Part shown: piece by piece, positions 7,311 to 58,529 of the stretch
How the letters are laid out: every line of letters begins with the position of its first letter
Numbering within the stretch: the first letter of the stretch is position 1
Sequence record: PZ212788.1
Length of the DNA stretch: 64,000 nt
Strand: one strand, 5' to 3'
DNA from: a phage
Position numbers and translations under genes: made by a program
Notes under the pieces: generated by a model
Told to the model about the DNA's origin: nothing
Seen by the model: only the letters and a program-made list of their open reading frames with translations
Database searches by the model: none

Positions 7311-10300
7311 TGCCAATTGCAATGATTGATAACATCGTTGCTTCTGCAAGATCTTCAAGTTATGACTGGAACGCATCCAAGGCAGCTCTGGCTGACAGCC
7401 TGAACACTGTTACCACCAGAACTCTGGATAAGATTTTTGAGGGCAACAAATCTTACAGAAGTCAGCAAGATAGACAAAAGCTTCTCAGATCTTCTGCTGC
7501 ACCTTGCTCTGTAGTGTATGGGAAGACACGCACATCTGGATTACTTGCGTTTTTGGAGCAGGACAGGGACAGGACCCTCCATTGTGCTATTGTTCTTGCC
7601 AATCATCCCCTGGAAGGTATAGAAGATATACTCATCGACGGTAATCCTATTTCCTCGTATGGAGATTTGATATCGTGGGAGCTACATAACGACAGAAAAA
7701 CATCTGATCCTTTCATGGGTACACACTGCCCGTCGTGGTCACCAGACATGATAGGTAGAGGGATCAGTTGGCTACGTGCCAGCTTCAGGTTTGACCCTAA
7801 CAAGTTCCCTTTTGGGTTGCCAAACGTTACACTCGTCAAGGTTGGTAAAAAATGCTATGATCCTCGTATCAGTAAAGAGGTGTATACCAATAACGCGGCC
7901 TTGGTGATTCTAGACTATTTAAGAACGTACCTTAAATGTCCTGACGAAACCATCAACTGGGAGTCCTTCAAGGAGGCTGCTAACATATGCGATGAGGCGG
8001 TAAGAAACGCGGACGGAACTAGTGAGCGCCGTTACACCATTAATGGTGAGTTCGATATGGATGAGGCCCCAGCAAGTATTATGGCAGAAATGCTGAAAGC
8101 TTGTGGTGCAGATCTCAGCTATGTAGCTGGTAAGTATGGACTGCTGGTAGGTGCATATTATGGTCCGGCAACAATGACACTGAGTGAGGACTGTGTCTGT
8201 GGTGAGGTTAAGATCTATCCGGAAGCCTCGTTTGACAAAAGATCCAACACAATAACTGGCAGATTCACCAGTCCGACTAAAGGGTATTCTGAAACAGATT
8301 TTCCATCAGTATTTGTCCCAGAGTGGATAGAGAAGGATGGAGAAAGAAAGATAATCGATATAGACTACCGCTTTGTTACCAGTCCTTACCAAGCTCAGCG
8401 TGTTTCTGCAATCTTCTTAAGACGTGCTAGAGCTGGCAGGATTATTGAAGTCACCTGCAATATGCGAGGTTTTAAATTTAAGCCTGGTAGTTACGTTACA
8501 ATGGACCTTCCAAGTATTGGTATAGTGGGCCAAGAAATGAGGGTTCTTGAGTGGGAGTTCACTAAAAAGGGTGGTGTTAAGGTAAAACTTCGCCAAGATG
8601 CTAAAGAGTGGAATGATGCCACAGGGCAACTTCCTGATTCCGGCGATGTAGATATTCCGATATCCCCGTCCGGTGTAGCTCAACCGCAAAACTTCAGATA
8701 CTCCGTTCTCCAAGCTGGGGAAGTAACTCACGGTGTTTTGGCTTGGGACAACGTTGGAACTTACGCTCAAAATATTGTGCAGGTAAGAAAGAACGGAGAG
8801 ATTGTTTGGACAGCACAGACAGTTGAGCAGTTTGTCCGAGTAGAAGGCTTGACCAAAGGGTCATACACAGCAACCGTGGTTGCAACATCTTATAAAGGTG
8901 GTGTATCTCCAGAAGCCTACTGCGAGTTCAACATTCAAGCACCTGAAGCTCCTGTTTCTGTAGAAGTTAAGCAGGGATACTTTGCTATCACCTTGATTCC
9001 GCATAGTAGGGATTTAGCAAGTGTTAGCACCCAGTATGACTTTTGGACATCCGGTATGACAAGGTTGCCAGACACCAGTGATGCAACCGTTACTTCAAAA
9101 GCCACCCGTATGGGTGTTGGTTCAACTTGGACATCTGAAGGTCTGCAGAACGATAAGATTTATTATTGGTATATTAGAACCACAAACGCTTTTGGTAGTT
9201 CTCAGTTTGTAGAATGCGCTGCACGCTGCTACACCTCTATTGAGGATTTGATGCCTCAGATAGATGCTGAATTCAAAAAGACAGAAACTTATAAAGAGTT
9301 GATGAGTACTTTGGATTCCTCTATTGAAGAGGTTGAAAATCGTGTCACAGAACTTAACAGGTACATGGATGGTAGGGTAGATGAAGCGTTCCAGCAACTT
9401 GGGGACAGAATAGGTGCGGTAGTTACAGAAACAACTCAGAAGTTTGAAGATGTCAATGGTAACATTACAGCGCTGGATAGGAAACTTGTTGCTGCACAGA
9501 ACAAATTCACCAACGATCTGAACACTGAAAGTGGCAGACTGGCATCTCTGATCGAGACAACCAATAAAGCAACTACTGATCTTCTGAACAAAAAGACAGA
9601 GGCTTTAGATGAGAAATTGGTTGCCGCCAAAGGTGAGCTGGTAGAGCAGATAGAGGGAGTTGAGAGCGGGTATTTAGCCGGAGATAAAACTCTGGATGGT
9701 AAGATCAATACTCAGAGAACAGAACTTGACGCAAGCATCTTGAGCACTAACCAGGCAACTGTGGATCTTTTGAACAGGACATCTGAAACTCTGGATCAAA
9801 AGATCAGTCAGACAAACGCGACGGTATCTAAAAACTATACCACCCTGGATGGCAAGATAACCACCGCAAAAACTGACCTCAACACCTTGATTGCCAATAC
9901 CAACAAGGCCACCACTGACTTGTTGAATCAGAAAACATCTGCACTGTCAGAGCAGATAACTTCTGCACGTGGGGAGATTTCTACCAACAAGCAGGCGATT
10001 GATGCTTTGGATGGAAAACTGACTTCCACAAAAACAGCGCTGGATGCTACAATTTCCGATACCAACAAAGCTACTGTGGACCTTATCAACGGCACAGCGT
10101 CAGCTATTCGTCAAGAACTTGCTGTTGCTAAGCAGGAGATCATTGATGATGTTGGGGATGTGTCCGAAATCAGGGCTGCAGTAGCTACAACATCTAAGGC
10201 TGTAACCGACTTAGAGGGTAAAGTAAATGCTCAATGGGGCACAAAAATACAGGTAGACTCCGCAGGGAATAAATATGTTGCAGGTATCCAGTTGGGGATG

Positions 10301-11254: not shown

Positions 11255-12745
11255 GTGGCTAAGTATGGATTGACAGAGGCTGGTTTCGTTATACCAACCC
11301 TAAATGACCTAATCGTTGAAACTAAGCAAAGCCTGATCCGTGCTTTTGGCGAAAACTTCAACGTACAGAGTAACTCCGTTGCAGATAAGCTGACCACTAT
11401 CTTCAACGAGCGAGAGTATCAACTTATTCTTATGGCAGCATCTGTATACGCATCACAGACGCTGTATGGGGCAGAAGGTATCTACCTAGATGAGCTTCTT
11501 GGAAGACAGGGTATTTACCGAAGAGGCCGTTCTAAATCATCAGGTACCTGCCAGTTGACAATCAACACAACTGTGCCGTACAATATGATTTATGATTCCA
11601 AAACTTATACGCTGGACAGTGGCAACTTTGTTCTTAGCAACGATGTGCAAGTAGCAGGGAATCTTATTGCTCACAGAATAAATGCTCCAGACCTAAGGAT
11701 TGGGAAATACAACTTCCAAATTACCAACCAGACAGATGGAAGTATCAAAACAAAAAGTCTGGTTTTAACAGATAAGTCTCTGGACTCTTCTGATTTGCCA
11801 AGCTTTTACGGAGAGATTAAGCAATTCATTGTCGATAATACAACCCTGTTGAACGACGATTTGATTCAGGTCGATATGTTGACAGGAACGTTGTGGATAG
11901 GGTACAATTCGAATCTTGATCAAGTTGGACTTAATAGTAGAGTAGATTTCAGAGTATCCCCGATTGTAGGGGAAAGAACTATCACCCTGGATGTTATCGC
12001 TAACGAGGCTGGTGAGCTGTCAAGAGAGGCAGAAACCGTGACAACAATGTCACCTACTCCCAGTGGATTTATCAAGCTTACCAACCGAGAAAGATTCAAC
12101 GAGGGCAGGGATGTTGAGAAAGATTCCGAGTATCGCTTAAGAGCTTCCAGCACAAAACAGTTAACATCGAAGGCTACCCGTCCTGCAATCCTTAGCGCTG
12201 TAAGCGAGGTGAAAGGTGTTGAGAAAGTGAGAGTGTTCTCCAACAACACTGATAAAACTGATGCTAAAGGTATACCTCCTTACAAGTTCCAAGTGGTTGT
12301 GTTTGGTGGTGCAACGGAGGACATTTGCCAAGCACTTTACCAAACTATAGCCTGTACGAACAGGACTTATGGTAATATTTTCTACGATGTCACTACATCT
12401 GACGGTCAAACTGAAAGAATTTATTACTCCAAGGCAAATACCTACCGCCTAGATGTAAGAATTACCTATTCCGGCGCTGCGCTTTCCACAACCGAAAAAG
12501 ATGCCATTGTAGAGGCTCTTTTGCAGGTTGTTAACGGACTGGATGTTGCAGATACGTTGTACAATATCCAATTGGTCGGTGCTGCATCCGCTGCTGTGTC
12601 GATAGGTAGATTTAATAGACTGGTAATTCAAGTTAAACCAGTAGGAGCTTCTGATGAAGCTTACACTACAAACGATATTGTTGCGAACATGACCGAGGTG
12701 TTTGACCTCGACGAAAGTAATATAACTTTCCAACAAACTATTTAA
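11255..12745 (+). CDS. Baseplate J-like protein (gp47 / P2 gpJ family)
   Basis: GTG start with RBS GGAGGAG; N-terminal AEGIYLDELLGRQGIYRRGRSKSSGTCQL matches the conserved GEYLDxL...G motif of Baseplate_J proteins. Confidence 0.6.
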   Translation: MAKYGLTEAGFVIPTLNDLIVETKQSLIRAFGENFNVQSNSVADKLTTIFNEREYQLILMAASVYASQTLYGAEGIYLDELLGRQGIYRRGRSKSSGTCQLTINTTVPYNMIYDSKTYTLDSGNFVLSNDVQVAGNLIAHRINAPDLRIGKYNFQITNQTDGSIKTKSLVLTDKSLDSSDLPSFYGEIKQFIVDNTTLLNDDLIQVDMLTGTLWIGYNSNLDQVGLNSRVDFRVSPIVGERTITLDVIANEAGELSREAETVTTMSPTPSGFIKLTNRERFNEGRDVEKDSEYRLRASSTKQLTSKATRPAILSAVSEVKGVEKVRVFSNNTDKTDAKGIPPYKFQVVVFGGATEDICQALYQTIACTNRTYGNIFYDVTTSDGQTERIYYSKANTYRLDVRITYSGAALSTTEKDAIVEALLQVVNGLDVADTLYNIQLVGAASAAVSIGRFNRLVIQVKPVGASDEAYTTNDIVANMTEVFDLDESNITFQQTI

Positions 12746-13443: not shown

Positions 13444-15515
13444 TGGCAACAGCTGTTTTTAAACCTTACCGTGATTACTCTACAATGGCTGCACGGTTTC
13501 ATTACCGAACAGTTCAGGATACTGCCGTTCCTGGTAGGGATTATGATCATGTTGAGGGCGATGTAACTATCCCAGTTGGGGCAACCAGTATTGAGATCCC
13601 CGTGGAAATTGTTGACAAATTACCCAACAGGTTGCCAAGAAGCTTCTTTATGGAGTTTTCATCAAAATCTCAAGGGGTGATGATTGGAACACAAAGGGCG
13701 AAATGTACAATAGTTTCAGATGAGAATCTTGACAGGATATCTTGGGATACTGTTGAGGAGAGAATGTTTCACCCAAGATATTGGGTTACAACCACTCAGC
13801 AGACTGAAAGTACCTGTATTGTTGCAGATAACAACTGTTGTATTAACCGTTTAGTGTCAAGAACATATGGAGGTATGGCTGGGTGCATTTGGGAAACAGT
13901 TGACAAGTATGACCATTTCGGTATTGGGTTTGATGATCACTATGAGATGAGAAACACCAAGCTTTGGTTCAGAATGTCAATAACCAATGCCAGCAACTTC
14001 TCCACCCCTGAAAAGATGATTATGACTGTAGACCTTGTTGATGGCACAATCATCTATGTTCCTTTAGCTCAATATGCTGTCAGCATCTCAGAGGATAAGA
14101 ATGTTGCAGAGATTCATATTGATTTCGAGGACTGCGTCGGGATGGATCAGAACAACAACATGATGGGTGTTGATCCTCGACAGGTGAGAAGGATTTTAAT
14201 ACCGCTTATGCCTAAAGACTGGGTAAGTAATAGCACAGACCCGAGAACGGAAAATGTAGAGTGTGAGTTGCGCCTAGATCTGCTCCAGCCAGACACAGGC
14301 TGGAAAATGATGCAACTTAACAATATTCAGGTTAAAGAGCACGACGTTGGGATCTGCACCGCATATGACGATATGTGGAACGTATCTCCTTTAAGGGTGT
14401 TGAACAATATCAAGCGTCTGGGCTATACCGGAACCATAAACCATTATGTTGGTATGAGTCATTATTATGACTACACATGGTCAGGAACCCAATGGTCTAT
14501 AAACAGAACAGGGGCGCTAAACGCTGCAGCTTATAAATGGCATGATGATTTTATGTACAATGCCAAACGACATAACTTCGACGTTATGCAATCTGTAAGT
14601 TTTGAGCTTTTCAGCGATGCCTGCCCGTTGGAATGGACCCAAAGAGACTGGAACGATAACTACGCTAAAACAGGGTATACACCCTGTAGCTACCTCCTGT
14701 CTCCAACCATTGAAGAGGGTATGAATTTCCTTACTGCAGTATTTAAGAATTTTGCATCAGCCGCTATGAGAAACAACCTGCCAGTGATTATGCAGGTTGG
14801 TGAACCGTGGTGGTGGTACAATACCGATACTCGTAGACCTTGTATTTATGATTACCCTACAAAGCAGGCGTTTTATGATGAGACAGGTGAGTATGCATTA
14901 GATATTGGGACTATTGACGATCCTAAAACTGGCGGTGTTTACGACAAGTATGTAGCATTTTGTCGTGGTAAGCTTGGCGCTCGTATTGCGGCTATTTCAA
15001 AGGCAATAAAGGCACACGCTGCATCAGCTCAGATGACAGCTTTGCTGTTTTTCCCAACCATCATGGAAACCGAGCTTACGCAAAAGCTGAACCTTGCTGA
15101 CCAATATAAAAAGGAAGCAGGTGCTCTTGATTTCTTCTGCACCGAGTGCTACGATTGGGTGATGCAGGGAGGTATTGAAAAGGCAAAAGAGTCTGTAAAC
15201 ATACCTATCGTTAAGTTAGGTTGGCAACCGTCTGAAATACAATACCTTGCAGGGTTCGTTCCTAGTAAAGAGCTTGCTCCGGTATATGGCTACGACCCAA
15301 CCAGGAATTACCAAGAATTTTTATGGAGATGTATCTGCGGAAACATGGCAACCATAGAGTATAGATACCCTGAGGTAAAACAGTATGTGTGGGCATACCC
15401 GCAAGTAATGTCTGACAGCATCACTGTTACAGCCAGAGATTCTACCGTGCTTCATATGGGGCAGGTTGCTCTGAAAGGGTATGTAGAAGATGTTGTCCCT
15501 CCAGACTTCTCATAA
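13443..15515 (+). CDS. Tail fiber / tailspike-like protein (690 aa)
   Basis: Large Trp/Tyr-rich protein in fiber cluster; possible carbohydrate-active domain, unverified. Confidence 0.4.
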   Translation: MATAVFKPYRDYSTMAARFHYRTVQDTAVPGRDYDHVEGDVTIPVGATSIEIPVEIVDKLPNRLPRSFFMEFSSKSQGVMIGTQRAKCTIVSDENLDRISWDTVEERMFHPRYWVTTTQQTESTCIVADNNCCINRLVSRTYGGMAGCIWETVDKYDHFGIGFDDHYEMRNTKLWFRMSITNASNFSTPEKMIMTVDLVDGTIIYVPLAQYAVSISEDKNVAEIHIDFEDCVGMDQNNNMMGVDPRQVRRILIPLMPKDWVSNSTDPRTENVECELRLDLLQPDTGWKMMQLNNIQVKEHDVGICTAYDDMWNVSPLRVLNNIKRLGYTGTINHYVGMSHYYDYTWSGTQWSINRTGALNAAAYKWHDDFMYNAKRHNFDVMQSVSFELFSDACPLEWTQRDWNDNYAKTGYTPCSYLLSPTIEEGMNFLTAVFKNFASAAMRNNLPVIMQVGEPWWWYNTDTRRPCIYDYPTKQAFYDETGEYALDIGTIDDPKTGGVYDKYVAFCRGKLGARIAAISKAIKAHAASAQMTALLFFPTIMETELTQKLNLADQYKKEAGALDFFCTECYDWVMQGGIEKAKESVNIPIVKLGWQPSEIQYLAGFVPSKELAPVYGYDPTRNYQEFLWRCICGNMATIEYRYPEVKQYVWAYPQVMSDSITVTARDSTVLHMGQVALKGYVEDVVPPDFS

Positions 15516-26586: not shown

Positions 26587-26994
26587 TCAGTCCTCGCATT
26601 TAACAAATTTTTCTATAGATCCACCAAGCACAGCTTGTTGTTTGATGGCACTTTCTTCATCATAGTGGATAGACTTATGTTCCGTACCTCCAAACTTACC
26701 TGTGTGGAAGGTGTGCACCCAAATCTCTTTAGGAAGGGATTTATTCTCTTCCTCCACCAACTCCCACATACCCCACAAGTGATCTGTGATATCTCTGATG
26801 AAATATCCCTCGCCGAGGTTTGTATTCACACTGTAAGCTGATTCGTGATCTCCGCAAATATAACGGAAGGCAGTGTACTCTTTACCTGGTGTGAAGTGAG
26901 TATCCATTAGTATGGCTGTTAAAGAATAAGGGTCTCGAAAGCCCAAGAACTTTAGTTTAACAATTTCGACATTTACATCTGCAAGATTATCCAT
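26587..26994 (-). CDS. Hypothetical protein (135 aa)
   Basis: ATG at 26994 with RBS GAGGAG 6 nt upstream preferred over ORF-track TTG at 27051. Confidence 0.45.
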   Translation of the reverse strand: MDNLADVNVEIVKLKFLGFRDPYSLTAILMDTHFTPGKEYTAFRYICGDHESAYSVNTNLGEGYFIRDITDHLWGMWELVEEENKSLPKEIWVHTFHTGKFGGTEHKSIHYDEESAIKQQAVLGGSIEKFVKCED

Positions 26995-27155
26995 GACGAT
27001 CTCCTCTGTTTGGTTGGTGAGAATTATATATAGATCTGGTGGTGGTGTCAAGCTTAATTTTAAGAGATCTGAGAGGGTATTTTATTCAGGAAGGCAATCG
27101 CACAGGGTGGAGAAATTTATGAAGGCACAGGCCTCGTTTGAGGCCTTAAATTCTA

Positions 27156-30077: not shown

Positions 30078-30341
30078 TCAGAAACCCTCTAAAAAGCTCT
30101 TGTAGAAAACAATCTCAGTATCCACACCAGTCACAATCTTGTCGTTCCTGATTTCATCGGTAAGATAGGTGTCAAAACGCAGAACCTGTGTGGTGTTGTC
30201 ACACATCCACTCAGCTGTGACCATTGCGAAAATCTTAGCATCTTCATTATCTGGTGTGAATGTTACCACCTCACCGCACTTAAACTTTTCGATAGGCTGA
30301 GTGTTAGCTTTCGGTTCTGCGATAGTGATTTTTGTGGTCAT
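30078..30341 (-). CDS. Small hypothetical protein (87 aa)
   Basis: Tightly packed small ORF. Confidence 0.4.
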   Translation of the reverse strand: MTTKITIAEPKANTQPIEKFKCGEVVTFTPDNEDAKIFAMVTAEWMCDNTTQVLRFDTYLTDEIRNDKIVTGVDTEIVFYKSFLEGF

Positions 30342-30607
30342 TACTCTTCCTCCATAGTTTCACCAAATACTTCGATACGAGCATCGAGCTCGGTTGCTTT
30401 CAGCTCCCCAACAAAATCTTTTAGTTCTTTCTCGTCCAGATCGTAAGCCCACACACAAGAAGAACATGCAGATTTCACAATCAGTAGAGTAGATACACGA
30501 CCTGACTCTGTGATCATGCTCACAATGGTCCCCACAGGGAACGTGTTGATAGCTTTTTTAACTGGGCGTTCAGCTTTAATTACTACCTCTGTTGCCATAA
30601 ATAACAT
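30341..30607 (-). CDS. Small hypothetical protein (88 aa)
   Basis: Tightly packed small ORF, overlap ATGA. Confidence 0.4.
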   Translation of the reverse strand: MLFMATEVVIKAERPVKKAINTFPVGTIVSMITESGRVSTLLIVKSACSSCVWAYDLDEKELKDFVGELKATELDARIEVFGETMEEE

Positions 30608-39840: not shown

Positions 39841-40422
39841 ATGATTTTCATCTACGAACATTTCAAAACTCGTAAAGAAGCACGCGACCGCCGTGCAGAA
39901 CTTGAGAAGAAGGGTTTCACATGTGCTATTGAGAAAGGTACTACAACATGGACACTGGCAGTAGGTGCCCCAGAGCTGTTTGATCCTGACCGAGACAGTG
40001 TCTGCTATACCCGTGAGGATTTTGAAACCCGCGAAGAGGCCCGTTTATTCCGCTACGGACTGGAAGACAACGGTAAGTACGCCATGATCTTAGATTCAGG
40101 TGAAGGTTCCGTTAAACGTTGGGGCGTGGTATACCCACTGTGTGTTGTTCACGGTGTGGGGGTCACTGGGGTAGCAATCAAGTCAGAAGAACCTTTAGTA
40201 GAAGTCAAAGATCCGGTGCTGGAAGTGGTGAGCAGTGTGTCTCAGCAACAGTCTCGAAGCATCGAGCCTTTGGTAGTTATTTGCGGGGAACTCCTCCAGA
40301 TCACCTGCAACGAAGGCATTTTTGAAATTCGCCGCAGCGAAAGTGAGGAAGTTTACCAGAAAGTCTTCGACCATATTTCTGTTCAGGAATATGATGAGGC
40401 AATTGGTGAAATCCTTGTCTAG
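39841..40422 (+). CDS. rIIB: rIIB-like protein, N-terminal portion ending at in-frame TAG (193 aa)
   Basis: RBS AAGGAGA; same reading frame as 40468-41046; C-terminal YQKVFDHISVQEYDEAIGEI resembles the T4 rIIB mid-region. Confidence 0.5.
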   Translation: MIFIYEHFKTRKEARDRRAELEKKGFTCAIEKGTTTWTLAVGAPELFDPDRDSVCYTREDFETREEARLFRYGLEDNGKYAMILDSGEGSVKRWGVVYPLCVVHGVGVTGVAIKSEEPLVEVKDPVLEVVSSVSQQQSRSIEPLVVICGELLQITCNEGIFEIRRSESEEVYQKVFDHISVQEYDEAIGEILV

Positions 40423-40467
40423 CTGGAACGCAAGAATGAGTTCACCACACTTGCAGACAACCTGATC

Positions 40468-41046
40468 ATGAAAGATGGTAAGCTCTACTACTACGGTGTA
40501 GAGATGCGATCCACCATTGCAAAGAAAATTGAGAAAGATTATGCAGACGGAACGCTGGATGACCGCTATGTGAAATTCCTCGTTCGCCTGCTACGCAATC
40601 CTTCTGCAAAATCTGTAAACATGCTCTACGATTTTATGCAGGCCAACGATATCCAGATTGCAGAAGATGGTCGAATCATTTGCTACAAAGGGGTTCAGTT
40701 TAACGGCAGCAAGTGGGTAGATTGGCACAGTGGTAAAGTTCCACAATACCAGGGTGCTTTTGTATCCATGCCTCGTAACTTTGTAGAGGATGATCCGGAA
40801 GCTGCGTGCTCCTATGGCTTACACTGCGCCAGCAAAGAGTATGCAAAGAGCTACGGCACTGTAATGACTGTCATGGTTGACCCTGCAGATGTGGTTAGTG
40901 TGCCATACCAACACAATAGCGCCAAGTGCCGTGCATGCCGCTATGAGATTGTGGTAGCTCCGGAAGCACGCAAAGATGGAGACCCTATTGAATATGTAGT
41001 TGATCGTGACGGTAACACTATCGACATTCTTTACGAGGAGGCGTAA
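40468..41046 (+). CDS. rIIB: rIIB-like protein, C-terminal portion (192 aa from first ATG after the TAG)
   Basis: FLVRLLRNPSAKSVNMLYDFMQANDIQIAEDG, CSYGLHCASKEYAKSYG and DPADVVSVPYQHNSAKCRACRYEIV match the recalled T4 rIIB C-terminal domain. Confidence 0.7.
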   Translation: MKDGKLYYYGVEMRSTIAKKIEKDYADGTLDDRYVKFLVRLLRNPSAKSVNMLYDFMQANDIQIAEDGRIICYKGVQFNGSKWVDWHSGKVPQYQGAFVSMPRNFVEDDPEAACSYGLHCASKEYAKSYGTVMTVMVDPADVVSVPYQHNSAKCRACRYEIVVAPEARKDGDPIEYVVDRDGNTIDILYEEA

Positions 41047-46949: not shown

Positions 46950-47684
46950 ATGAACGAGTTCAGAGATCACTGTGTAGCCAATCACTTGTGGTCAGAAATA
47001 TTGGAGTATGACGGTCAAAATCTTTTTTGGAAGATAGACATTCTGGCAGGTAGCGGTGTAGGATATGTTAAAACTTCAGCAGGCTCCAGAGCCGACAAGG
47101 GGCAAGATGCTGATGGCAGGCCTGTGGTTAGCCTAGGAAAGCATTGCACTAAAGGTGCCCACGTCATAATTTGGGAAATGTTTAACGGTCCTGTACCGGA
47201 AGGGTATGAGGTTGACCACATCAAGGAGATAAGGGAAACAGGTGGTGTGGCTGATAACAGTATTCAAAATTTGCAACTACTCGAGCCCACAGATAACAAA
47301 AAGAAAAGTTGCAAGATACCTCGTAGCAACAACAAATCTGGCAGGGTCGGGGTGCACTATTCTGAAGAAAGAGAGGCATGGGTAGCTCAAGGCACAGACT
47401 CTGTAGGGGAAAGGGTCTGGCTAGGCCAGTACAGAACTTTCGAAGAGGCAGAGTGGGCAAGAAAGTTCTTCGAAGATAATGGTTTTTCGCACAAGAGTGG
47501 AAGAGCCGTGCAGTATAATAACACCAGCGGTTGCTCAGGGGTGAATTGGGATAAAACCCATGAGAGATGGGTAGCCAGAATTTATGTAGATGGTAAAAGG
47601 AAATGCCTTGGGTATTTCAAGAATAGGGACGATGCAATAGCTGCAAGAAAGAATGCTGAGAAGAAACAGGAGGAGACAGTATGA
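46950..47684 (+). CDS. HNH homing endonuclease with AP2-type DNA-binding domains
   Basis: HNH core EGYEVDHIKE...NSIQNLQLL; two AP2-like repeats SGRVGVHYSEEREAWVAQ and SGCSGVNWDKTHERWVARIY; inserted between primase-helicase and polymerase. Confidence 0.8.
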   Translation: MNEFRDHCVANHLWSEILEYDGQNLFWKIDILAGSGVGYVKTSAGSRADKGQDADGRPVVSLGKHCTKGAHVIIWEMFNGPVPEGYEVDHIKEIRETGGVADNSIQNLQLLEPTDNKKKSCKIPRSNNKSGRVGVHYSEEREAWVAQGTDSVGERVWLGQYRTFEEAEWARKFFEDNGFSHKSGRAVQYNNTSGCSGVNWDKTHERWVARIYVDGKRKCLGYFKNRDDAIAARKNAEKKQEETV

Positions 47685-50458
47685 GTAATTGGTGCTTCGA
47701 TCTGGAGGCCTCCGGGCTTTTGGAAGACCCAGATCTTTATTATCACTGCGGCCTGTTTAAAGAGCTGAATAAGAACCGTTTTATGCTGTTCCTTCCTCTA
47801 AATGACCGCACACACTACTCCGAGGAGGATATAGAAAAGGCTAAGAACTTCATTCTGGCAAAGAAAACTCTTTATAAAGATTTTGAAGTTCGCATAGCAG
47901 ATTTTTCAGAGTTGGAAGGTTGGCTTACAGGAAATTCTGACTGGTCACCAACAGCTTTGAACTGCCATAACTGCTACAGTTATGACTTTATGCTGATGGA
48001 AAGATTATCTGGTATTCATTTTGATATGTTCCGTGATCCTAAATGTATGGGGACTATCAACGATCACCAGGTTAACCTGTTTGATACGTTGGCGATGAGC
48101 CGAATCTTGTGGCCTGATCGCCCTTTACCAAAAGGTTGTCCGGACTCTGTATTCAACCCGGTTACTAAGAAAATGCAACCTGTTGGTCCTCACGGCCTTA
48201 TGGCATGGGGCTACGCCCTTGGTAACCAGAAAGTTCAAATTGATGACTGGCGCGATCTTCCGTTGTGGAAGTATGTGGATCGTGTATTCGAGGACGTTAT
48301 CATCCAGGAGCTGCTCTGGAAAGAGCTGGTAGCGGAATCAAAAGGTGTATTCTACGGCAAATCTGACATGCAGAACTTTATGTACGATCCAGCCAAAGAG
48401 AAGCCGAAAGGGTTCAAGAAAATCACCTGGAAGAACGCATTACGCCGAGGCATGCTGCAGCACTTCCTGATGGAGCTGCAGGCCCGTCAGGGTGTGTATT
48501 TCGACATAGATGGGGCTATTGCTTTACGTGACCGTTGCGATGCGTGGATGAAAGAGATCGCTGATCGTGTTGAACCTCAACTTCCTTTAAAAGAGTTGTC
48601 AATGTCTCAGCGGCCCAAGTTCCCTGAAAAGCCGTTTAACCAAGATGGGACAATCTCCAATAATGGTTGGAAATGGTTAAAAGATAAGCTTGGCTATCCT
48701 GTAGACATGAGCGCTTTAGAATTCAAAGCCCCGCCTAAGCGAGCATTTACCTCCACAGGAGATGTCAGCAAGATGGGGATAAAATGGTGCGAAGAGATGG
48801 GCTGCAAAGACCCCGACAAGATGGCTGATTTCTTGAGAGGTTATATTAAGGGCACCTCCACACCACAACCTTTACCTAAAGAGCTGATGGATCAGGCAAT
48901 AAGTGATCTGCAGCAGAAGCGAATGCCTGACTGCAAGATACCTATGAAAATCAGCAATCAGGACGACATTAAGCGATACCTGATCAGTGCTGGTTGGCTC
49001 CCAACAATGTGGAGAACTAAGGATGTAACTAAAGACAGCAAGAAGAAAGCTCTACCTGATGCAGATGTTGATGCACGAGTGTATGCATATATGGACGAGC
49101 TTTTAGAGTCAGAGTATTGTGACCTAATTATCAACTTCTGGAACAAAACTGATGCTAAGTTCCAGACAACCGTGCACAAGTTCCGAAGCTTTCCTAACTC
49201 CGAAAGGATTAAAAAGGAAGTATTCGGGAAAATACGTAGAAAAGCTAGGGCACTTATTACTTCTCCGCAACTGAAAGATACGTTTGGACACCTATGCCCG
49301 AATCTTGAAAAATTGAACGGAGAGATGGCTAAAGATATCGTCTTGTGGTTATCATTGCGAAACCGCAGATCGGTCCTTGATCCAATTAAGGAGGATAAGG
49401 TTGATACTGGTCTTCTTAATCACCCACGTTTGAAGATTGACCATAAGCTTCCTGCTAAAAGCTCTGGATTAACAAACACTTCCAGACAGAAACACAGTAT
49501 TTGTGCAAACATGCCTAAACCATCTCCTAAAGTGGTTATGGGTAAAGAGATGCGTAGTCTGTGGGGTGTTCCTCCGGGATACTTTGAGATCGGTATTGAC
49601 GGGTCCAACTTAGAGCAGCTTATCGGGGCTTGGGGTGCCTTTGAGTTCGACAACGGCTTGTATTATGATGTTGTAAGTAACGGAGACGCACACCAAAACA
49701 ATGCTGAGGCATATACAAAAGTGGCAGGCAGAGAGGTGTCCCGTAACGACGGTAAACCTATCACGTATGGGGTTATGTACGGGGCACAAAAAGATAAAGT
49801 TGCAGATATGCTGGACATCTCCCCAGAGTTGGGACAAAGGGTAATCGATGCACTCTGGGATGCCAACCCAGGTCTTAAGGGGCGCAAAGAGGATCTGGAG
49901 AAATTCTGGGAAGCAACAGGTAAGAAGTTTATCTACTCTTTTGATGGTCATGCTATCTGGACCCGATCTAAACACTCTTTACTTAATGCATACCAACAAA
50001 ATGGCGGTGCATCGTTGTGTGACTTAGTTGGAATACTCATGCACCACCAGATGGTGAAGCGTGGGTGGTACGATGAAGGTGTTCGTCGTATTATCTATTA
50101 CCATGACGAATATCAGCTTCAAGTCCCTGACACACCGAAGTATAAGACTGTGTACACCTTCGACACAATCGAAGAACTGGAAGCATTTAAGGCAGAGCAG
50201 GAGGCCAAACTTCATGTGTTCGACGGTCATAAGTACAAAAAGGCACGCAAGGATGAGGACGGAAACGAAGTGGTTGACAGAGACGGAAACACGGTGTACG
50301 ATCCTATCCTGAATGATGACGGAAAGCTTGAACTTATCTGGAGCCCTGTGGGTGAAATGGTGGTGCATTGCTTCTGGCAAGCTTCTAAAATGATGGGCGT
50401 CCCGTTCCAGATCACAGGTGAATACTTGTGTGGTCGTAATTGGGGCGATTGTCACTAA
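47681..50458 (+). CDS. Family A DNA polymerase, T7 gp5-like with 3'-5' exonuclease domain (925 aa)
   Basis: Exo I CFDLEASGL; GPHGLMAWGYALG resembling T7 gp5; motif B ITYGVMYGAQ; motif C YYHDEYQLQV; C-terminal NWGDCH. Confidence 0.9.
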   Translation: MSNWCFDLEASGLLEDPDLYYHCGLFKELNKNRFMLFLPLNDRTHYSEEDIEKAKNFILAKKTLYKDFEVRIADFSELEGWLTGNSDWSPTALNCHNCYSYDFMLMERLSGIHFDMFRDPKCMGTINDHQVNLFDTLAMSRILWPDRPLPKGCPDSVFNPVTKKMQPVGPHGLMAWGYALGNQKVQIDDWRDLPLWKYVDRVFEDVIIQELLWKELVAESKGVFYGKSDMQNFMYDPAKEKPKGFKKITWKNALRRGMLQHFLMELQARQGVYFDIDGAIALRDRCDAWMKEIADRVEPQLPLKELSMSQRPKFPEKPFNQDGTISNNGWKWLKDKLGYPVDMSALEFKAPPKRAFTSTGDVSKMGIKWCEEMGCKDPDKMADFLRGYIKGTSTPQPLPKELMDQAISDLQQKRMPDCKIPMKISNQDDIKRYLISAGWLPTMWRTKDVTKDSKKKALPDADVDARVYAYMDELLESEYCDLIINFWNKTDAKFQTTVHKFRSFPNSERIKKEVFGKIRRKARALITSPQLKDTFGHLCPNLEKLNGEMAKDIVLWLSLRNRRSVLDPIKEDKVDTGLLNHPRLKIDHKLPAKSSGLTNTSRQKHSICANMPKPSPKVVMGKEMRSLWGVPPGYFEIGIDGSNLEQLIGAWGAFEFDNGLYYDVVSNGDAHQNNAEAYTKVAGREVSRNDGKPITYGVMYGAQKDKVADMLDISPELGQRVIDALWDANPGLKGRKEDLEKFWEATGKKFIYSFDGHAIWTRSKHSLLNAYQQNGGASLCDLVGILMHHQMVKRGWYDEGVRRIIYYHDEYQLQVPDTPKYKTVYTFDTIEELEAFKAEQEAKLHVFDGHKYKKARKDEDGNEVVDRDGNTVYDPILNDDGKLELIWSPVGEMVVHCFWQASKMMGVPFQITGEYLCGRNWGDCH

Positions 50459-50507
50459 TGTAAACTATCAACACATGGAAGTGTTGTTGAGCAAAGAGGA
50501 GACTTTT

Positions 50508-50792
50508 ATGGTAGTAGAGCCAACAAAAACATTTACATCCATGACCATTCCTGTTATTATGCAGGTGGAGTGTGTTCAGGTATCTCAAGTGTGGCCTGGC
50601 ACCAAAATCCCAACAGGGCCTGATTTCTTTCAGGTTGGGAAAGTGTACAATGTCTGGAAGGCACCAGATTGTTACCCTTTCATTAAAGATGACCGTGGGA
50701 TGCTGTGGTATCTTGGAAATGACTTGACACTGCACCTTGGGAATGCTATTATTGCAGTATTCAGACTTAACAAGAAGGAGACCGATCAATGA
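50508..50792 (+). CDS. Small early protein, member of bipartite-motif family (94 aa)
   Basis: ATG 50508 with RBS GAGGAG; motif FFQVGKVYNV...IKDDRGMLWYLG. Confidence 0.45.
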   Translation: MVVEPTKTFTSMTIPVIMQVECVQVSQVWPGTKIPTGPDFFQVGKVYNVWKAPDCYPFIKDDRGMLWYLGNDLTLHLGNAIIAVFRLNKKETDQ

Positions 50793-51016
50793 CGACTTTG
50801 GTTAAAGCTACCTTTGTAGAAGAAAAGATGACAGACCTGTCATTCTTTAAAGAAGGAAAGACCTACGAGGTTTATTACGATAAAGCTCGTGCAAACAAAA
50901 TGATTAAAGACGAGGAAGGGGTTGCCTGGTATATCTCTCACCTGGCAAACGGTGAGTATCATATCTACGGAACCACTTTGCTTGCCAAGTTTGTAGTTGT
51001 TGAAGAGGACCTATGA
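50789..51016 (+). CDS. Small early protein, member of bipartite-motif family (75 aa)
   Basis: RBS AAGGAGA; motif FKEGKTYEV...IKDEEGVAWYIS. Confidence 0.45.
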   Translation: MTTLVKATFVEEKMTDLSFFKEGKTYEVYYDKARANKMIKDEEGVAWYISHLANGEYHIYGTTLLAKFVVVEEDL

Positions 51017-51207
51017 AAGTAAAGTATCTTGCTGAAGGTATGAATAGGTATTTTACCCTTGGGGAAGAATATTGGCCCTTTACAAACAACGGTGATGTCT
51101 ACGTGAAAGATAATTTCGGCACGCCGTGGTTTCTGCACTCTAATGGGCTGGGATACTCCATTTACTGCGGTGCAGTGAACAACACAACTCTTGCAGAGTT
51201 CGTTTAG
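51013..51207 (+). CDS. Small early protein, member of bipartite-motif family (64 aa)
   Basis: RBS GAGGA; motif FTLGEEYWP...VKDNFGTPWFL. Confidence 0.45.
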   Translation: MKVKYLAEGMNRYFTLGEEYWPFTNNGDVYVKDNFGTPWFLHSNGLGYSIYCGAVNNTTLAEFV

Positions 51208-51217
51208 AGGAGGTAGG

Positions 51218-51589
51218 ATGTTAGTAAAAGGTACCCACACAGTCAAACAACGTATTGAAGTTGAGATTGATGATTGTGAGCTGAAGCATATTTTACGGTC
51301 ATGCTCCAACGTTTTGCTCCTTAGTATTCTTCAGGAGCGAGCGGAGAACGAGTTCTTAAATGCATTGGCAGGCCGTCCCGGTGACTTCTGTGTGCGTAAG
51401 CGTGGTGACAACAAGTCGTGGTTGTGGGAGATCGATGCCGACTGGGATTACCACAAAAATGAGGGTATAGATGAGCCTATTCGTGAACTGACGGACAAAG
51501 AGATTCAGATGTACAATGAAGTTTGTCATTGGGCAACACGCCAACAAATTTACCTAGACCCTGTGTGGCTGATTGAAAATAGTCGTTGA
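51218..51589 (+). CDS. Hypothetical early protein (123 aa)
   Basis: ATG 51218 with RBS GAGGAGG preferred over ORF-track start 51191. Confidence 0.45.
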   Translation: MLVKGTHTVKQRIEVEIDDCELKHILRSCSNVLLLSILQERAENEFLNALAGRPGDFCVRKRGDNKSWLWEIDADWDYHKNEGIDEPIRELTDKEIQMYNEVCHWATRQQIYLDPVWLIENSR

Positions 51590-51614
51590 CAAGAAGTAAG
51601 GTTAGATGTAAGAT
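51586..51614 (+). promoter_or_regulatory. Sigma70-type promoter
   Basis: -35 TTGACA, 17-nt spacer, -10 TAAGAT; upstream AAAATAGTCG shared with promoters at 60208 and 63497. Confidence 0.6.
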
Positions 51615-51665
51615 ACTCCTCACAAACAGAGTATTGATTGTTAAATAATTAAGGAGACCTCTAAG

Positions 51666-51920
51666 ATGAAAATCATGTTGAAACCAGAATGCGTTGCAAA
51701 CGACCGAGCTTTTAAAGATTGCACACTTGGCGCTACTTATGAAGCAGAGTTTTGTGAGAACCCTTTGGTAAAAGCCCTTTTGGAAGAAGGGGCCCCTCTA
51801 TCACAAGAAGAGCTTGATGAGCTGGAAAACTCAGCACAGTGCCTTACCTTTAAAGATGATGAAGGAGACTCTGTCTGGTGCACTGTTAACGAAGTAGTTT
51901 TTGTAAAAACTGAACATTAA
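51666..51920 (+). CDS. Small early protein, paralog of 51984-52244 (84 aa)
   Basis: RBS AAGGAGA; KPECVANDRAFKDCT and FKDDEGDSVWCT align with KPDYLEKDSAFRDCT and IEDDNGDCVFCT. Confidence 0.5.
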   Translation: MKIMLKPECVANDRAFKDCTLGATYEAEFCENPLVKALLEEGAPLSQEELDELENSAQCLTFKDDEGDSVWCTVNEVVFVKTEH

Positions 51921-51923
51921 TAC

Positions 51924-51952
51924 TTGACAACAGCGATAGGACCTAATACAAT
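51924..51952 (+). promoter_or_regulatory. Sigma70-type promoter
   Basis: -35 TTGACA, 17-nt spacer, -10 TACAAT. Confidence 0.6.
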
Positions 51953-51983
51953 GGTCCTATCAAAACGAAAGGGGACCACAGCA

Positions 51984-52244
51984 ATGACCAAACAATATCA
52001 ACGAATTAAAGCCAAGGTTAAGCCAGACTATCTAGAGAAGGACTCTGCTTTTCGGGACTGCACAGCTGACAAAGTTTACACAGGGGCCGTCCTGTTGAAC
52101 GATAAACTTGAAGTAGATGTGCTGGGTAAAGAGGCCGTTATCGAGGATGACAACGGTGACTGTGTTTTCTGCACCACACGAGAGCTAGAAGTCTTAGAAT
52201 ATTTCGGTGAAATCTTCAACTCCTTAGACGACGAGGAAGCGTGA
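51984..52244 (+). CDS. Small early protein, paralog of 51666-51920 (86 aa)
   Basis: ATG 51984 with RBS AAAGGGGA preferred over ORF-track start 51924, which overlaps the promoter. Confidence 0.5.
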   Translation: MTKQYQRIKAKVKPDYLEKDSAFRDCTADKVYTGAVLLNDKLEVDVLGKEAVIEDDNGDCVFCTTRELEVLEYFGEIFNSLDDEEA

Positions 52245-52633
52245 TGAAAAATATTTGGGATATCGATATCTTTGAAGCCTCTAAGCTTGACGGTGCTGAT
52301 GGAGTGATTATGGTGTCTGATGGCAAGGCAACACTAACTTCCGGAGATATCATCTATGCCTTGGACGAGCTGGCGCTTCTGAAATCTACCGGTAACACTT
52401 TGGAGGAGCGTCTTCAGGGATTCGCTTTCAAAGAAGGTACAAATACAGCCATGATGTGCACCACACGGACAGTTCAGGTTGGTAACGGTGTCTATATGAT
52501 TATTGCTGTGTGTCCTAAATTCAGCAACGTCAACAAAGATGATGCTGACGCGGTCAACGATGTGGTTGTTCTCTTCGTGGGTGACGCTATGGCAGATCTG
52601 ATGAATGCAGGAGAAGCAGCAAATGAAGACTGA
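52244..52633 (+). CDS. Hypothetical early protein (129 aa)
   Basis: ATG 52244 overlapping upstream stop (TGATG), RBS GAGGAAG. Confidence 0.45.
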   Translation: MKNIWDIDIFEASKLDGADGVIMVSDGKATLTSGDIIYALDELALLKSTGNTLEERLQGFAFKEGTNTAMMCTTRTVQVGNGVYMIIAVCPKFSNVNKDDADAVNDVVVLFVGDAMADLMNAGEAANED

Positions 52634-52925
52634 AAACATCACCCCAGCAGGGTTCTTAAAAGTATACCGTGAACTGCTATATACTACAGAGGACAGTGTT
52701 CTAGAGTATCCAGAATATCTTTTGCTGTATAAGTATCTGCAGGAGGCTGGTGAAAATCTGCCAGTTAGTGCAGAAGGTGGTCCAAACTGGATATACAGCG
52801 CATGGAGAAAGGTTGACATTCTCCCAGACCCAGGTAAAGATATGGTAGTTTGGCAGCTTATCAACAACATCGGGATTCCAATCTTTGATGAAGCTGTTAA
52901 AATCTATTTTGAACTTGACGATTAA
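52623..52925 (+). CDS. Hypothetical early protein (100 aa)
   Basis: ATG 52623 with RBS AGGAGA preferred over 52605. Confidence 0.45.
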   Translation: MKTENITPAGFLKVYRELLYTTEDSVLEYPEYLLLYKYLQEAGENLPVSAEGGPNWIYSAWRKVDILPDPGKDMVVWQLINNIGIPIFDEAVKIYFELDD

Positions 52926-52942
52926 TATCAGGAGACCTTAAG

Positions 52943-53188
52943 ATGACTGAAGCAGTTGCTCGCGCAGGACAGAAAGTACGTTGTGTTGAAGTAGGTTTTG
53001 GTGGCAAAGGGTGTCAAAACTTGACTCAAGGCAAGGAATATGCTGTTATCTCTGGTGGTGGCGACGAAAGTATTGTGTTCGAGGGCCACATCCTGGATGC
53101 TGAAAACTTTGAAATCTTTGACGACGATGGGGATCCGATCACCTGCCTGCTGGACGGGAATTGGGGAACTTTCGAAGTGATTGGCTAA
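52943..53188 (+). CDS. Small early protein, member of bipartite-motif family (81 aa)
   Basis: RBS CAGGAGA; motif LTQGKEYAV...FDDDGDPITCLL. Confidence 0.45.
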   Translation: MTEAVARAGQKVRCVEVGFGGKGCQNLTQGKEYAVISGGGDESIVFEGHILDAENFEIFDDDGDPITCLLDGNWGTFEVIG

Positions 53189-53198
53189 CAAATACCTA

Positions 53199-53227
53199 TT
53201 GTAATTTACAGAAGGGGATGCTAAAAT
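53199..53227 (+). promoter_or_regulatory. Sigma70-type promoter
   Basis: -35 TTGTAA, 17-nt spacer, -10 TAAAAT. Confidence 0.5.
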
Positions 53228-53271
53228 AGTGTCTCCTTCTATGTTGTTCAAATAAAATCGGAGATTCCATA

Positions 53272-53640
53272 ATGGAACAAATGAACGATCAAGAGTCGGT
53301 TGCGATGAACGAGCAAGAACAACCTCAAGAATTTTTCTTAGGGTTAAGTAAAGATCAAGTGTCTCTTTTGCTAGTGCTTTCTTCTTTCATGGGAAGACTT
53401 CAGGAGCTCACACAACAACCGGAGGCTGAACAATTATTTCAGGCTCTGCGTGAAGAAGAAAAATATCGTCGTTTGGACTATGCCTTAGGTTGGGTAGCTC
53501 AACAACGAGATATGTTGATGGCCCTCTCTGGGACCACAAGTTTTGCAATGGGCCTGTTGGCTCAAGTTCAGGACAAATTAATTCAAGCAGGGTTTGCACA
53601 CACGGCAAACACTAACGAAGAACAAGGAGACAAAGAATGA
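53272..53640 (+). CDS. Hypothetical protein, Gln/Glu-rich N-terminus (122 aa)
   Basis: RBS GGAGA; start overlap ATGA with the next gene. Confidence 0.45.
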   Translation: MEQMNDQESVAMNEQEQPQEFFLGLSKDQVSLLLVLSSFMGRLQELTQQPEAEQLFQALREEEKYRRLDYALGWVAQQRDMLMALSGTTSFAMGLLAQVQDKLIQAGFAHTANTNEEQGDKE

Positions 53641-54908
53641 GCGTTATTCAACAATTCGCTAACCCGATGAATCCGCGTGAAACTGTTTTACTGGCTCACG
53701 GCATGATTAAACGCGTCAGCATCAAGCCTATCAAAGGTGCTGATCCTACAACAGGTATTAAAACCACTGTGTGGCAAGGTAAGAAAATTGAGTCCAGCCA
53801 CACCATCTCTTTACTGATTTCTGAACTGGATTCCTCTGATAACCTACTTCAAGGTGGTGAAGAAGTTTGGATCAGTATGGGCGATAAGCTGCTTAAACCG
53901 GGTCATCAAGACTCTGTCTCTGTTAAAATTGATGACAAGTGGGAAACCGTAACGCCAGGATGGATCGTAAATATCCCTTTGAAGGCAAACGAGCATAACG
54001 GTAAGACCTACTACAAAGGCTCACTGGCTAAGATGGTTAAGCTGGGTGCAGGAGAGGCTCCAGCAGCGACTCAGCAGCAAAAACAGCAACAAGGTGCACA
54101 ATCACAAGGCCAGAAGCAGAAACCTCAGCAGAATGCCAATCAGGACGTTTTACGCATCTATGGTGATGTGACTCAGATTGTTGGCAACGTGGTTACTGTT
54201 AATGACCACAAGATTGGCGAAGGTGCTATGGTTGTAACTGATGAGCAGCTTAAAGACCTGGTGGTAGGTGGTCGTGTTGCAGCCATTGTTGACAAAGACA
54301 CCGGAAACATTATCAGTGGTTTCAAAGCCTATCCTCCTAAGGCAGAGAACGGCACTCAAGGCTCTGGTGGCAAGCGTAAATCCTCTTACGACCCTATCGG
54401 TGTGGAGACGGGACATAGCATCAATGCGTTGCAGATCATCCTGGATCGCGGGTTTAAGGTAGACGACCCACTGGGCGTGGCTAAAACACTGCACGTAGTC
54501 ACCATTGAGCTTAAGAAAGAGTATGCTCAAGCCACCAACCGAACTGAAGATGAAGTAGGTGCCAGTGTCGGTAATGCGGTGTTGAACGCTTGTCGCCGTA
54601 TTGACAAGAAAACGAAAGTTGATGATTTTGCAGTGGCAATTACTGCAGAAGCAAAAGATGTCTTGACTAATCTAGCTGAGCCGTTGTACGATTGGATCAA
54701 GAACGGTGCTGAGTCCACTGACCATCAAGAACCTCAGGCTGCCAAACAGGAAGCAGCTCCACAGCAAAACACTGTAGACGCTCCTCCTGTAAATGATGGG
54801 GAAGATGACCCGATGGATCAGAATCCAGCACAGTATGACTTCTGTGATGACATACCTTTCGCTCCGGTGGGTTTGCAATATGGAAAAAGCAGAATCCACG
54901 CATTGTAA
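53637..54908 (+). CDS. Two-domain protein with Gln-rich linker and acidic SSB-tip-like motif; possible ssDNA-binding protein (423 aa)
   Basis: RBS GGAGA; linker [20 protein letters not shown]; near C-terminus [19 protein letters not shown] resembles the E. coli SSB tail DFDDDIPF; no enzymatic motif. Confidence 0.35.
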
Positions 54909-58283: not shown

Positions 58284-58529
58284 ATGAACAAAGGGTGGAC
58301 ATTTGTAGACGGCGTTAAAAACATGCCTCTAGGAAAGTATATTGTAGCCATGGCAGATGAGAATGGAAAGGTTGATTTCGGAGTTTGCGAGGTTGTTCTT
58401 GCAGGATCTGGTGACTATGCTCACAAAACTGGGATAATTAACGGTCATTTCTACTTTGATTACAACCCTGTTGTGGCGTATATGGCTATGCCAGAGTTCG
58501 AGCTCCCAAAGGAAGGTGCAGATGTTTAA
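58284..58529 (+). CDS. Small early protein, possible bipartite-motif family member (81 aa)
   Basis: RBS CAGGAGA; motif MPLGKYIVAMADENGKVDFGVCEV. Confidence 0.45.
   Translation: MNKGWTFVDGVKNMPLGKYIVAMADENGKVDFGVCEVVLAGSGDYAHKTGIINGHFYFDYNPVVAYMAMPEFELPKEGADV

Follow-up and report, generated by a model that had tools for sequence, protein, structure and literature searches.

The small-gene cluster behind the DNA polymerase gene

The present analysis concerns a cluster of small phage genes in a stretch of 64,000 nucleotides from sequence record PZ212788.1, referred to below as the window, which belongs to a Vequintavirus, an rV5-like myovirus of Escherichia coli. The cluster is situated directly 3′ of the genes for primase/helicase and for a T7-like DNA polymerase of 925 amino acids (aa), on the same strand, and more than 100 rV5-like phages of Escherichia, MaxTheCat/Bas57 and SophiaRose among them, match the region from 50400 to 53700 at 97–99.7% identity. 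The working names g1–g10 stand for the consecutive genes between 50508 and 53640, and the gene set of the window comprises 89 genes. A preliminary description of this DNA had singled out g1, g2, g3, g5, g6, and g9 as one tandem, diversified family of small early proteins sharing a bipartite motif. It turns out that these genes form three groups (g1–g3, g5–g6, and g9) instead of a single six-member family, and that their products may well be small SH3-like β-barrels.

The first group begins with g1 (50508..50792, + strand), which encodes a protein of 94 aa, is preceded by a GAGGAG ribosome-binding site, and carries the sequences FFQVGKVYNV and IKDDRGMLWY; it belongs to phrog_12922, and in the rV5 annotation it is given a GTG start further upstream, at 50430. 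It is followed by g2 (50789..51016, +; 75 aa) and g3 (51013..51207, +; 64 aa), the start of each overlapping the stop of the preceding gene in an ATGA sequence, so that translational coupling of g1–g3 is probable. The second group consists of g5 (51666..51920, +; 84 aa), with a helical-looking insertion relative to its neighbor, and g6 (51984..52244, +; 86 aa), for which a start at 51951 is indicated in other records. The gene g9 (52943..53188, +; 81 aa), a member of phrog_4927, stands alone. All six open reading frames (ORFs) thus exist with the coordinates first described, but they are not all adjacent, since unrelated genes intervene: g4 (51218–51589) between g3 and g5, and then g7 (52244–52633), which follows g6, and g8 (52623–52925, +), a DUF7238 gene (E = 5.5e-7) between g7 and g9 that is unrelated to the motif family. 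The gene g10 (53272–53640) lies 3′ of g9.

Paralogy within the groups and the bipartite motif

Smith–Waterman alignments evaluated against shuffled sequences gave z = 11.5 for g5–g6, z = 11.0 for g1–g2, and z = 5.1 for g2–g3, all other pairs being unremarkable. The proteins g5 and g6 have in common the sequences AF[KR]DCT and DD[EN]GDxV[WF]CT, find each other with phmmer at 1e-6, and show reciprocal PHROG matches at 4e-5, in full agreement with the paralogy of this pair noticed at the outset. For g1 and g2, the phmmer value is 9e-5 and the PHROG matches are again reciprocal; a profile hidden Markov model (HMM) built from these two proteins retrieved g3 as the best outsider among the window genes (E = 0.002). 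Seven positions are invariant in g1–g3 (F20, G23, Y26, D41, G44, W47, and H51 in g2 numbering). Certain third-party PHROGs are matched in common as well, namely phrog_3523 by g1 and g2, phrog_3249 by g2 and g3, phrog_10169 by g2 and g9, and phrog_17459 by g5 and g6. Two of the groups are therefore tandem paralogues.

PHROG comparisons gave no cross-matches at all for g4, g7, g8, or the ORF at 58284. The latter had been put forward as a possible further member, but it is not one, as PHROG, HMM, and hhalign tests provide no support. An assignment of this ORF as DUF551-like was also dismissed, as it has no Pfam match at E ≤ 1 and its hhalign probability with the DUF551 protein of phage 4MG is 0.7%.

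The motif as initially worded (a hydrophobic residue followed by G[KE]xY, a gap of 10–30 residues, [DE][DE]xG, and an aromatic residue) fits only one of the six proteins, g1. A looser two-part pattern, G[KE]xY followed by [DE][DEN]xG, is confined among the 89 window genes to g1, g2, g3, and g9, with an expectation of 0.19 among small genes after shuffling, and a still more relaxed form is found in five of the six but nowhere among the remaining 83. The shared motif thus holds for four to five of the six proteins in its looser form, but not as originally written. Neither half is unusual when taken singly, 14 genes of the window containing G[KE]xY and 26 containing [DE][DE]xG. Since the looser patterns were set after the sequences had been seen and were tuned to them, the independent HMM test described below carries more weight.

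Predicted structures and comparison with Gp54

Structure models cover g2 and g6, and the two were compared by the order of their elements and the position of the motif. The AlphaFold2 model of g2, obtained with the g1–g3 alignment, has a mean predicted local distance difference test score (pLDDT) of 89.5 and a predicted template modeling score (pTM) of 0.76; it is an all-β protein of six strands with a short helix in the long connection between strands 1 and 2. For g6, AlphaFold gave an SH3-like barrel of generic type (pLDDT 82.5), and this model did not retrieve Gp54, the phage protein discussed next. In both models, the secondary-structure elements follow in the same order, the first half of the motif is located just before strand 2 or opens it, the D-D-x-G sequence forms the turn between strands 3 and 4, and the aromatic residue lies in strand 4; both also match the SH3 domain of RecD (5LD2_D). 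The models thus show a barrel fold for g2 and for g6, with the motif at the same place in each, as far as predictions can. The two predicted folds are related but not identical, g2 being Gp54-like and six-stranded and g6 a generic SH3-like barrel; a Gp54-like fold was not found for the g5/g6 group in the g6 model.

The closest characterized system is Gp54 of Escherichia phage Bas11 (PDB 9AXB; CapRel(SJ46) complex 9ERV; phrog_7421; Zhang et al., Nature 2024, PMC11578894). Gp54 is a non-essential protein of 66 aa which directly binds and activates CapRel(SJ46); upon binding, its barrel partly unfolds, and the loop between strands 1 and 2 pairs with a CapRel sheet. The mutations G24D and W43* allow escape from CapRel, and the RecD SH3 domain 5LD2_D was cited by the same authors as a structural neighbor (PMC11578894). 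Like Gp54, g2 is predicted to be a small six-stranded β-barrel with a prominent strand 1–2 loop, and the two proteins agree in alignment position both for the F-x-x-G that ends the loop and for the G-x-x-W of the strand 3–4 region: F20, G23, G44, and W47 of g2 align with F21, G24, G40, and W43 of Gp54. Two of these residues, G23 and W47, invariant in g1–g3, correspond to the CapRel-escape positions G24 and W43. Both proteins are also encoded among other tiny hypothetical genes. The differences are equally clear. Sequence similarity is non-significant (16% identity, different PHROGs; g2 alone against Gp54 gives a Smith–Waterman z of 3.3, p = 0.008), Gp54 comes from a Drexlerviridae siphovirus and g1–g3 from a Vequintavirinae myovirus, and Gp54 exists as a single copy in Bas11 as opposed to the translationally coupled triplet g1–g3. 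The match to g1–g3 became no better with a deeper Gp54 profile of five sequences sharing 67–95% identity. Judging from the g2 model, the barrel of g1–g3 is of the same rare six-stranded type as that of Gp54, and their link to Gp54 is one of predicted structure and motif register, not of demonstrated sequence homology. It has been reported that close Gp54 homologues fail to activate CapRel (PMC11578894), so that activation of CapRel by g1–g3 is not to be expected by default.

In a Foldseek comparison with BFVD, the g2 fold (template modeling (TM) scores 0.6–0.8) was recovered in many uncharacterized proteins of 60–80 aa from Drexlerviridae and other enterobacterial phages, so it is apparently common among small proteins of such phages. 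One BFVD entry with a predicted g2/Gp54-like fold (TM 0.68) is A0A6B9X1Z6, a 78-aa “putative minor capsid protein” of Escherichia phage isim, likewise a Vequintavirus; a search of the isim sequence that corresponds to most of the window did not locate its gene. Other SH3-like small β-barrels comparable with the proteins described here are the InlB SH3-like domain, the Sho1 SH3 domain, and KOW domains.

The g9 family and the links between the groups

The protein g9 matches phrog_4927 along practically its entire length (E = 1e-27 over residues 3–81). An exhaustive HMM search with g9 yielded 19 matches at E < 1e-3, proteins of 69–86 aa encoded on phage-sized metagenomic contigs, and a homologue is also present in Aeromonas phage phiA050; the family is found in diverse uncultivated Caudoviricetes. 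Its consensus may be written as LTxGKxYxV ... FEIxDDxGDxIYC ... WExV, so that what is conserved at the heart of this independently defined family is the bipartite motif itself. All 13 aligned members match phrog_4927, and the relatives of g9 outside Vequintavirus also match the neighboring PHROGs 18403, 6261, 10169, 3523, and 15694, all annotated as “unknown function”. The g9 protein resembles the members of phrog_4927 and its neighbors in size and in all three conserved blocks. Unlike g9, the g5/g6 and g1–g3 proteins are not members by PHROG scores; they fall in their own genus-specific PHROGs (12544, 11936, 12922, 12623, and 12802) with no direct match to phrog_4927.

For an independent test, an HMM constructed solely from non-Vequintavirus relatives of g9 was run on the 89 window genes. 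It returned g9 itself at 1e-27, followed by g6 (0.0011), g3 (0.0021), g5 (0.0031), the ORF at 26587–27051 on the complementary strand (0.0096), g1 (0.061), one unrelated gene, and g2 (0.12). As judged from 200 shuffled proteomes, HMMER understates E-values in this score range about 3-fold. Four genes besides g9 reached E ≤ 0.01, compared with at most one in any of the 200 shuffled proteomes. Profile–profile comparison by hhalign linked the g9 family to g5/g6 with a probability of 62% (P = 7.5e-5) over 44 columns that include both motif halves. The phrog_3523 profile, which is multi-repeat, is matched in the same register by g1/g2 (columns 153–191) and by g9 relatives (columns 141–206).

The same comparisons brought up a candidate seventh member, the N-terminal domain (26743..26904, − strand) of a 135-aa protein encoded at 26587–26994 (−). 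This domain aligns with the g9 family in hhalign (68%, score 31.5) over four blocks, FTPGKEYTA, CGDHE, LGEGYFI, and WGMWELVEE. The protein is a two-domain one assigned to phrog_15992, its N-terminal domain matches phrog_30425, and its membership is plausible by sequence.

Beyond the window, among 2,242 ORFs compared, the g9-family HMM found in addition only two phiA050 paralogues, gp79 of Bas11, and an ORF adjoining Gp54 homologues. With the former, phiA050, an unrelated phage, has three g9-family paralogues within about 2 kb (2848–3111, 3983–4237, and 4479–4769), which indicates that the family forms tandem arrays elsewhere too. The ORF next to the Gp54 homologues occurs in two Drexlerviridae contigs (501–704 and 501–713) and reads ...KLVCTK...NFTEGKEYKL...HVFDDNGQSLWLF...; it is the top outside match of the g1–g3 HMM and is also matched by the g9-family HMM; used as a query in turn, it matches g9 orthologues best, followed by gp48 of Bas11 and then by g2/g3 orthologues. 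The g1–g3 HMM matches gp48 (13579–13944, −), and gp79 (8502–8954) is the Bas11 match of the g9-family HMM; all three, the bridging ORF, gp48, and gp79, bear an FTxGKxY ... DDxG-aromatic motif.

Several searches brought no further relatives. A jackhmmer search from the bridging ORF (inclusion E = 0.01) in a small local database did not expand; word-indexed homology searches with g2, g9, and g5/g6, as well as a scan of IMG/VR with the g1–g3 alignment as a degenerate pattern, recovered Vequintavirus orthologues only; and for none of the members was there a significant match in Pfam, NCBIfam, or the PDB sequences. An assignment of g9 to DUF7244 was rejected, as its E-value (0.039) is below threshold and is not reproduced by g9 relatives.

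In sum, the profile search named beforehand as a check on the proposed relationship links members above chance, with no shuffled proteome among the 200 equaling the joint signal, and the motif reflects relatedness that is genuine and not random. Within the groups, the links are clear; between the groups, they are significant jointly but marginal singly, and g1 and g2 are not linked on their own. At the level of sequence, these data show that the motif is not shared by chance. Common ancestry of g5/g6 and g9 is likely, and that of g1–g3 with them is plausible but unproven.

Conservation, selection, and expression

The six ORFs are annotated in related genomes and were found in 115 of 118 matching Vequintavirus records and in all loci retrieved. 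Codon comparison with seven other Vequintavirus loci gave ratios of nonsynonymous to synonymous substitution rates (dN/dS) of 0.01–0.27 at dS up to 0.8 for every gene. The g1 protein is 98–100% identical across Vequintavirus, with dN/dS of about 0.01 at dS of about 0.7 in five of the seven loci, a constraint equal to that of the polymerase and far above that of its paralogues g2 and g3. The genes are thus real, genus-wide, and individually conserved. Diversifying selection as the cause of the tandem copies was rejected on these values; the family had been called diversified, but what it experiences is purifying selection, and the latter, acting on each copy, points to distinct maintained functions rather than an arms-race array.

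Relatives from Mydovirus and Seunavirus have kept g4, g8, and g10 (g8 is retained in Seunavirus) but lack g1–g3, g5–g7, and g9, so that the candidates are genus-specific. The position after the DNA polymerase gene looks like a hot spot for small-gene exchange. The corresponding slot in other Vequintavirinae genera is occupied by a DUF551 gene in 4MG (11729–11932) and by a DUF2158 gene in EspYZU12 (11714–11911).

Several of the genes had been credited with near-consensus sigma-70 promoters of their own, which proved correct in part. A sigma-70-type promoter precedes g5 (51586..51614, +; TTGACA-17-TAAGAT, 10 of 12 positions), annotated as P220 in rV5, and another precedes g6 (51924..51952, +; TTGACA-17-TACAAT, 11 of 12). 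Transcription from the latter would start downstream of the ATG at 51951, which favors the g6 start at 51984. A sigma-70-like site before g2, inside the 3′ end of g1 (50724..50752, +; TTGACA-17-TATTAT with a TG, 11 of 12), is a consensus match only. No convincing promoter was seen for g9, g1, or g3; a weaker sigma-70 site and a hairpin are located 3′ of g9. The picture of small, conserved, promoter-proximal accessory genes within a block of replication genes is supported.

The literature was also searched for transcriptome and knock-down studies of rV5-like phages and for Vequintavirus timing data, and none were found for these genes; in the CRISPRi-ART paper, phage EdH4 was used only for capsid and rII targets. 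Five of the six proteins are acidic, with isoelectric points (pI) of 4.1–5.0 and net charges from −2 to −12, the exception being g1. Such acidity favors protein binding over nucleic-acid binding.

Interpretation and alternative explanations

The explanation that best fits these observations, and which is on balance probable, is that the locus encodes three groups of small (64–94 aa), mostly acidic SH3-like β-barrel accessory proteins with a putative role in protein binding. The groups g1–g2–g3, g5–g6, and g9, probably together with the N-terminal domain of the 26587–26994 (−) protein, would be single-domain barrels, and the motif would be the structural signature of the barrel: its first half, F/L-x-x-G-K-x-Y, would close the long loop between strands 1 and 2 and open strand 2, whereas the second, D-D-x-G plus an aromatic residue, would form the tight strand 3–4 hairpin turn and then supply a core aromatic residue in strand 4. 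Relatedness of the g5/g6 pair to g9 is probable, with g1–g3 as more distant relatives of both. All would be non-structural accessory proteins, the host RNA polymerase transcribing their genes along with those for replication, and each paralogue may be a small protein binder with a different host or phage target, which it would contact via its long loop and edge strands, in a manner likened to that in which Gp54 clamps CapRel. The outcome could be host takeover or counter-defense, with recognition by defense sensors as a possible side effect. A role of these modules on host or defense proteins is suggested by analogy, and the same applies to the “early” timing and the targeting of host functions or defense proposed in the preliminary description. 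A functional parallel drawn by the Gp54 authors (PMC11578894) is with T7 Ocr-type proteins, which inhibit one defense and trigger another and are small, acidic, non-essential, and early-expressed; with respect to the genes described here, this likeness is a pure analogy with no relation in fold or sequence.

A number of results weigh against this explanation. Pairwise comparison of shallow, orthologue-only profiles of the three groups gave noise-level scores; the hhalign probability of the g9 family with g1–g3 is 7.5%; the g9-family HMM values of g1 and g2 (E 0.061 and 0.12) are individually non-significant; between-group matches are short (10–45 columns) and centered on the motif; and the link of g1–g3 to the others depends on marginal scores, with E of about 0.002–0.007 for g3. 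As for Gp54, hhalign with g1–g3 gave E = 0.28, and E = 0.22 for the five-sequence Gp54 family, in the register expected from the structures, and g1–g3 have no match to phrog_7421, no PHROG in common with Gp54, and no PDB sequence match. Finally, functional, expression, or interaction data on these genes were sought in the literature, and none were found.

Part of this evidence would be accommodated by two independent lineages, with g1–g3 as very distant Gp54 homologues, g5, g6, and g9 as a separate SH3-like family, and a motif that arose convergently from hairpin geometry. This is possible, if rather doubtful. It would account for the noise-level comparison of the g1–g3 profile with those of g5/g6 and g9 and for the clearly better fit of the g9 family to g5/g6 (62%) than to g1–g3. 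It is harder to reconcile with the match of g3 to the outside-only g9-family HMM at E = 0.002, which spans strand 1, the loop, and strand 2 and thus extends beyond the short motif; with the same phrog_3523 columns being matched by g1/g2 and by g9 relatives; with the Drexlerviridae bridging ORFs, matched by both HMMs; and with the order of elements and the motif positions being the same in the two models.

It is distinctly unlikely that only the paralogy within groups is real and that the cross-group motif is a chance, low-information likeness of common β-turn strings chosen by eye. The fit of the strict motif to one protein of six, the frequency of each half alone (14 and 26 genes), the 3-fold optimism of the E-values, and the non-significant shallow hhalign comparisons all speak in its favor, yet the combined pattern is absent from the other 83 genes, the Vequintavirus-free HMM brings four genes besides g9 to E ≤ 0.01 against at most one per shuffled proteome, the motif coincides with the conserved core of a family defined independently, and its halves occupy equivalent structural positions in two independent models. 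Nucleic-acid-binding regulators of the KOW, Tudor, or Sm-like small-barrel type, which would modulate transcription or translation during infection, are highly improbable, as the acidity of all the proteins except g1 is unfavorable for binding RNA or DNA, and Gp54, the only characterized structural relative, binds a protein.

Other observations in the window

Apart from the cluster, a 244-aa homing-endonuclease ORF with HNH_3 and AP2 domains (46950–47684, +) is located between the primase/helicase and DNA polymerase genes, its end overlapping the polymerase start in an ATGA sequence. The polymerase in the window is one unbroken ORF of 925 aa; in rV5, FV3, and isim, it is split by an HNH insertion. 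The rIIB gene (39841–41046, +) has an in-frame TAG at codon 194 (40420–40422), where MaxTheCat has TGG (Trp), reflecting either an amber mutant or a sequencing error. At 30078–30607 (−), there are tandem paralogues of 87–88 aa with an F-x-x-G-x-V-V sequence, present in two copies as compared with three 264-nucleotide copies in MaxTheCat and isim. They may represent another small-barrel array; no link to the motif family of g1–g9 was found.

Novelty and significance

In the literature searched, no paper ties Vequintavirus genes to Gp54 or describes the motif family, and neither Pfam nor NCBIfam has a model for its members. As regards known anti-defense proteins, general Pfam, PHROG, and NCBIfam scans matched no annotated family; no dedicated anti-defense library was searched. 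The members are new, and the kind of protein to which they belong is known but functionally uncharacterized. A broader proposal, rather unlikely as it stands, is that they are part of a large uncurated superfamily of phage accessory proteins that takes in Gp54 and many separate PHROGs, with Vequintavirus having at least seven copies, phiA050 three, and Bas11-like phages several. Its members would act as modular binders that neutralize host factors or defense proteins through strand pairing of the long strand 1–2 loop, and as recurrent patterns they would be sensed by immune proteins of the CapRel type. If true, a fold called “very rare in nature” would be a common fold of the small-protein “dark matter” of phages.

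Gp54 is among the few small phage proteins of this “dark matter” for which a crystal structure is available and the interaction with a bacterial immune sensor has been defined. A conserved, coupled triplet with a predicted Gp54 fold in an rV5-like phage thus offers concrete, testable candidates, and genetics is feasible because the 99.7%-identical phage Bas57 (MaxTheCat) is available in the public BASEL collection. Relatives bearing the motif are present in several phage groups, including beside Gp54 homologues. The findings further suggest that several PHROGs could merge into one domain family with a recognizable signature, and the annotation of small ORFs in phages might improve as a result.

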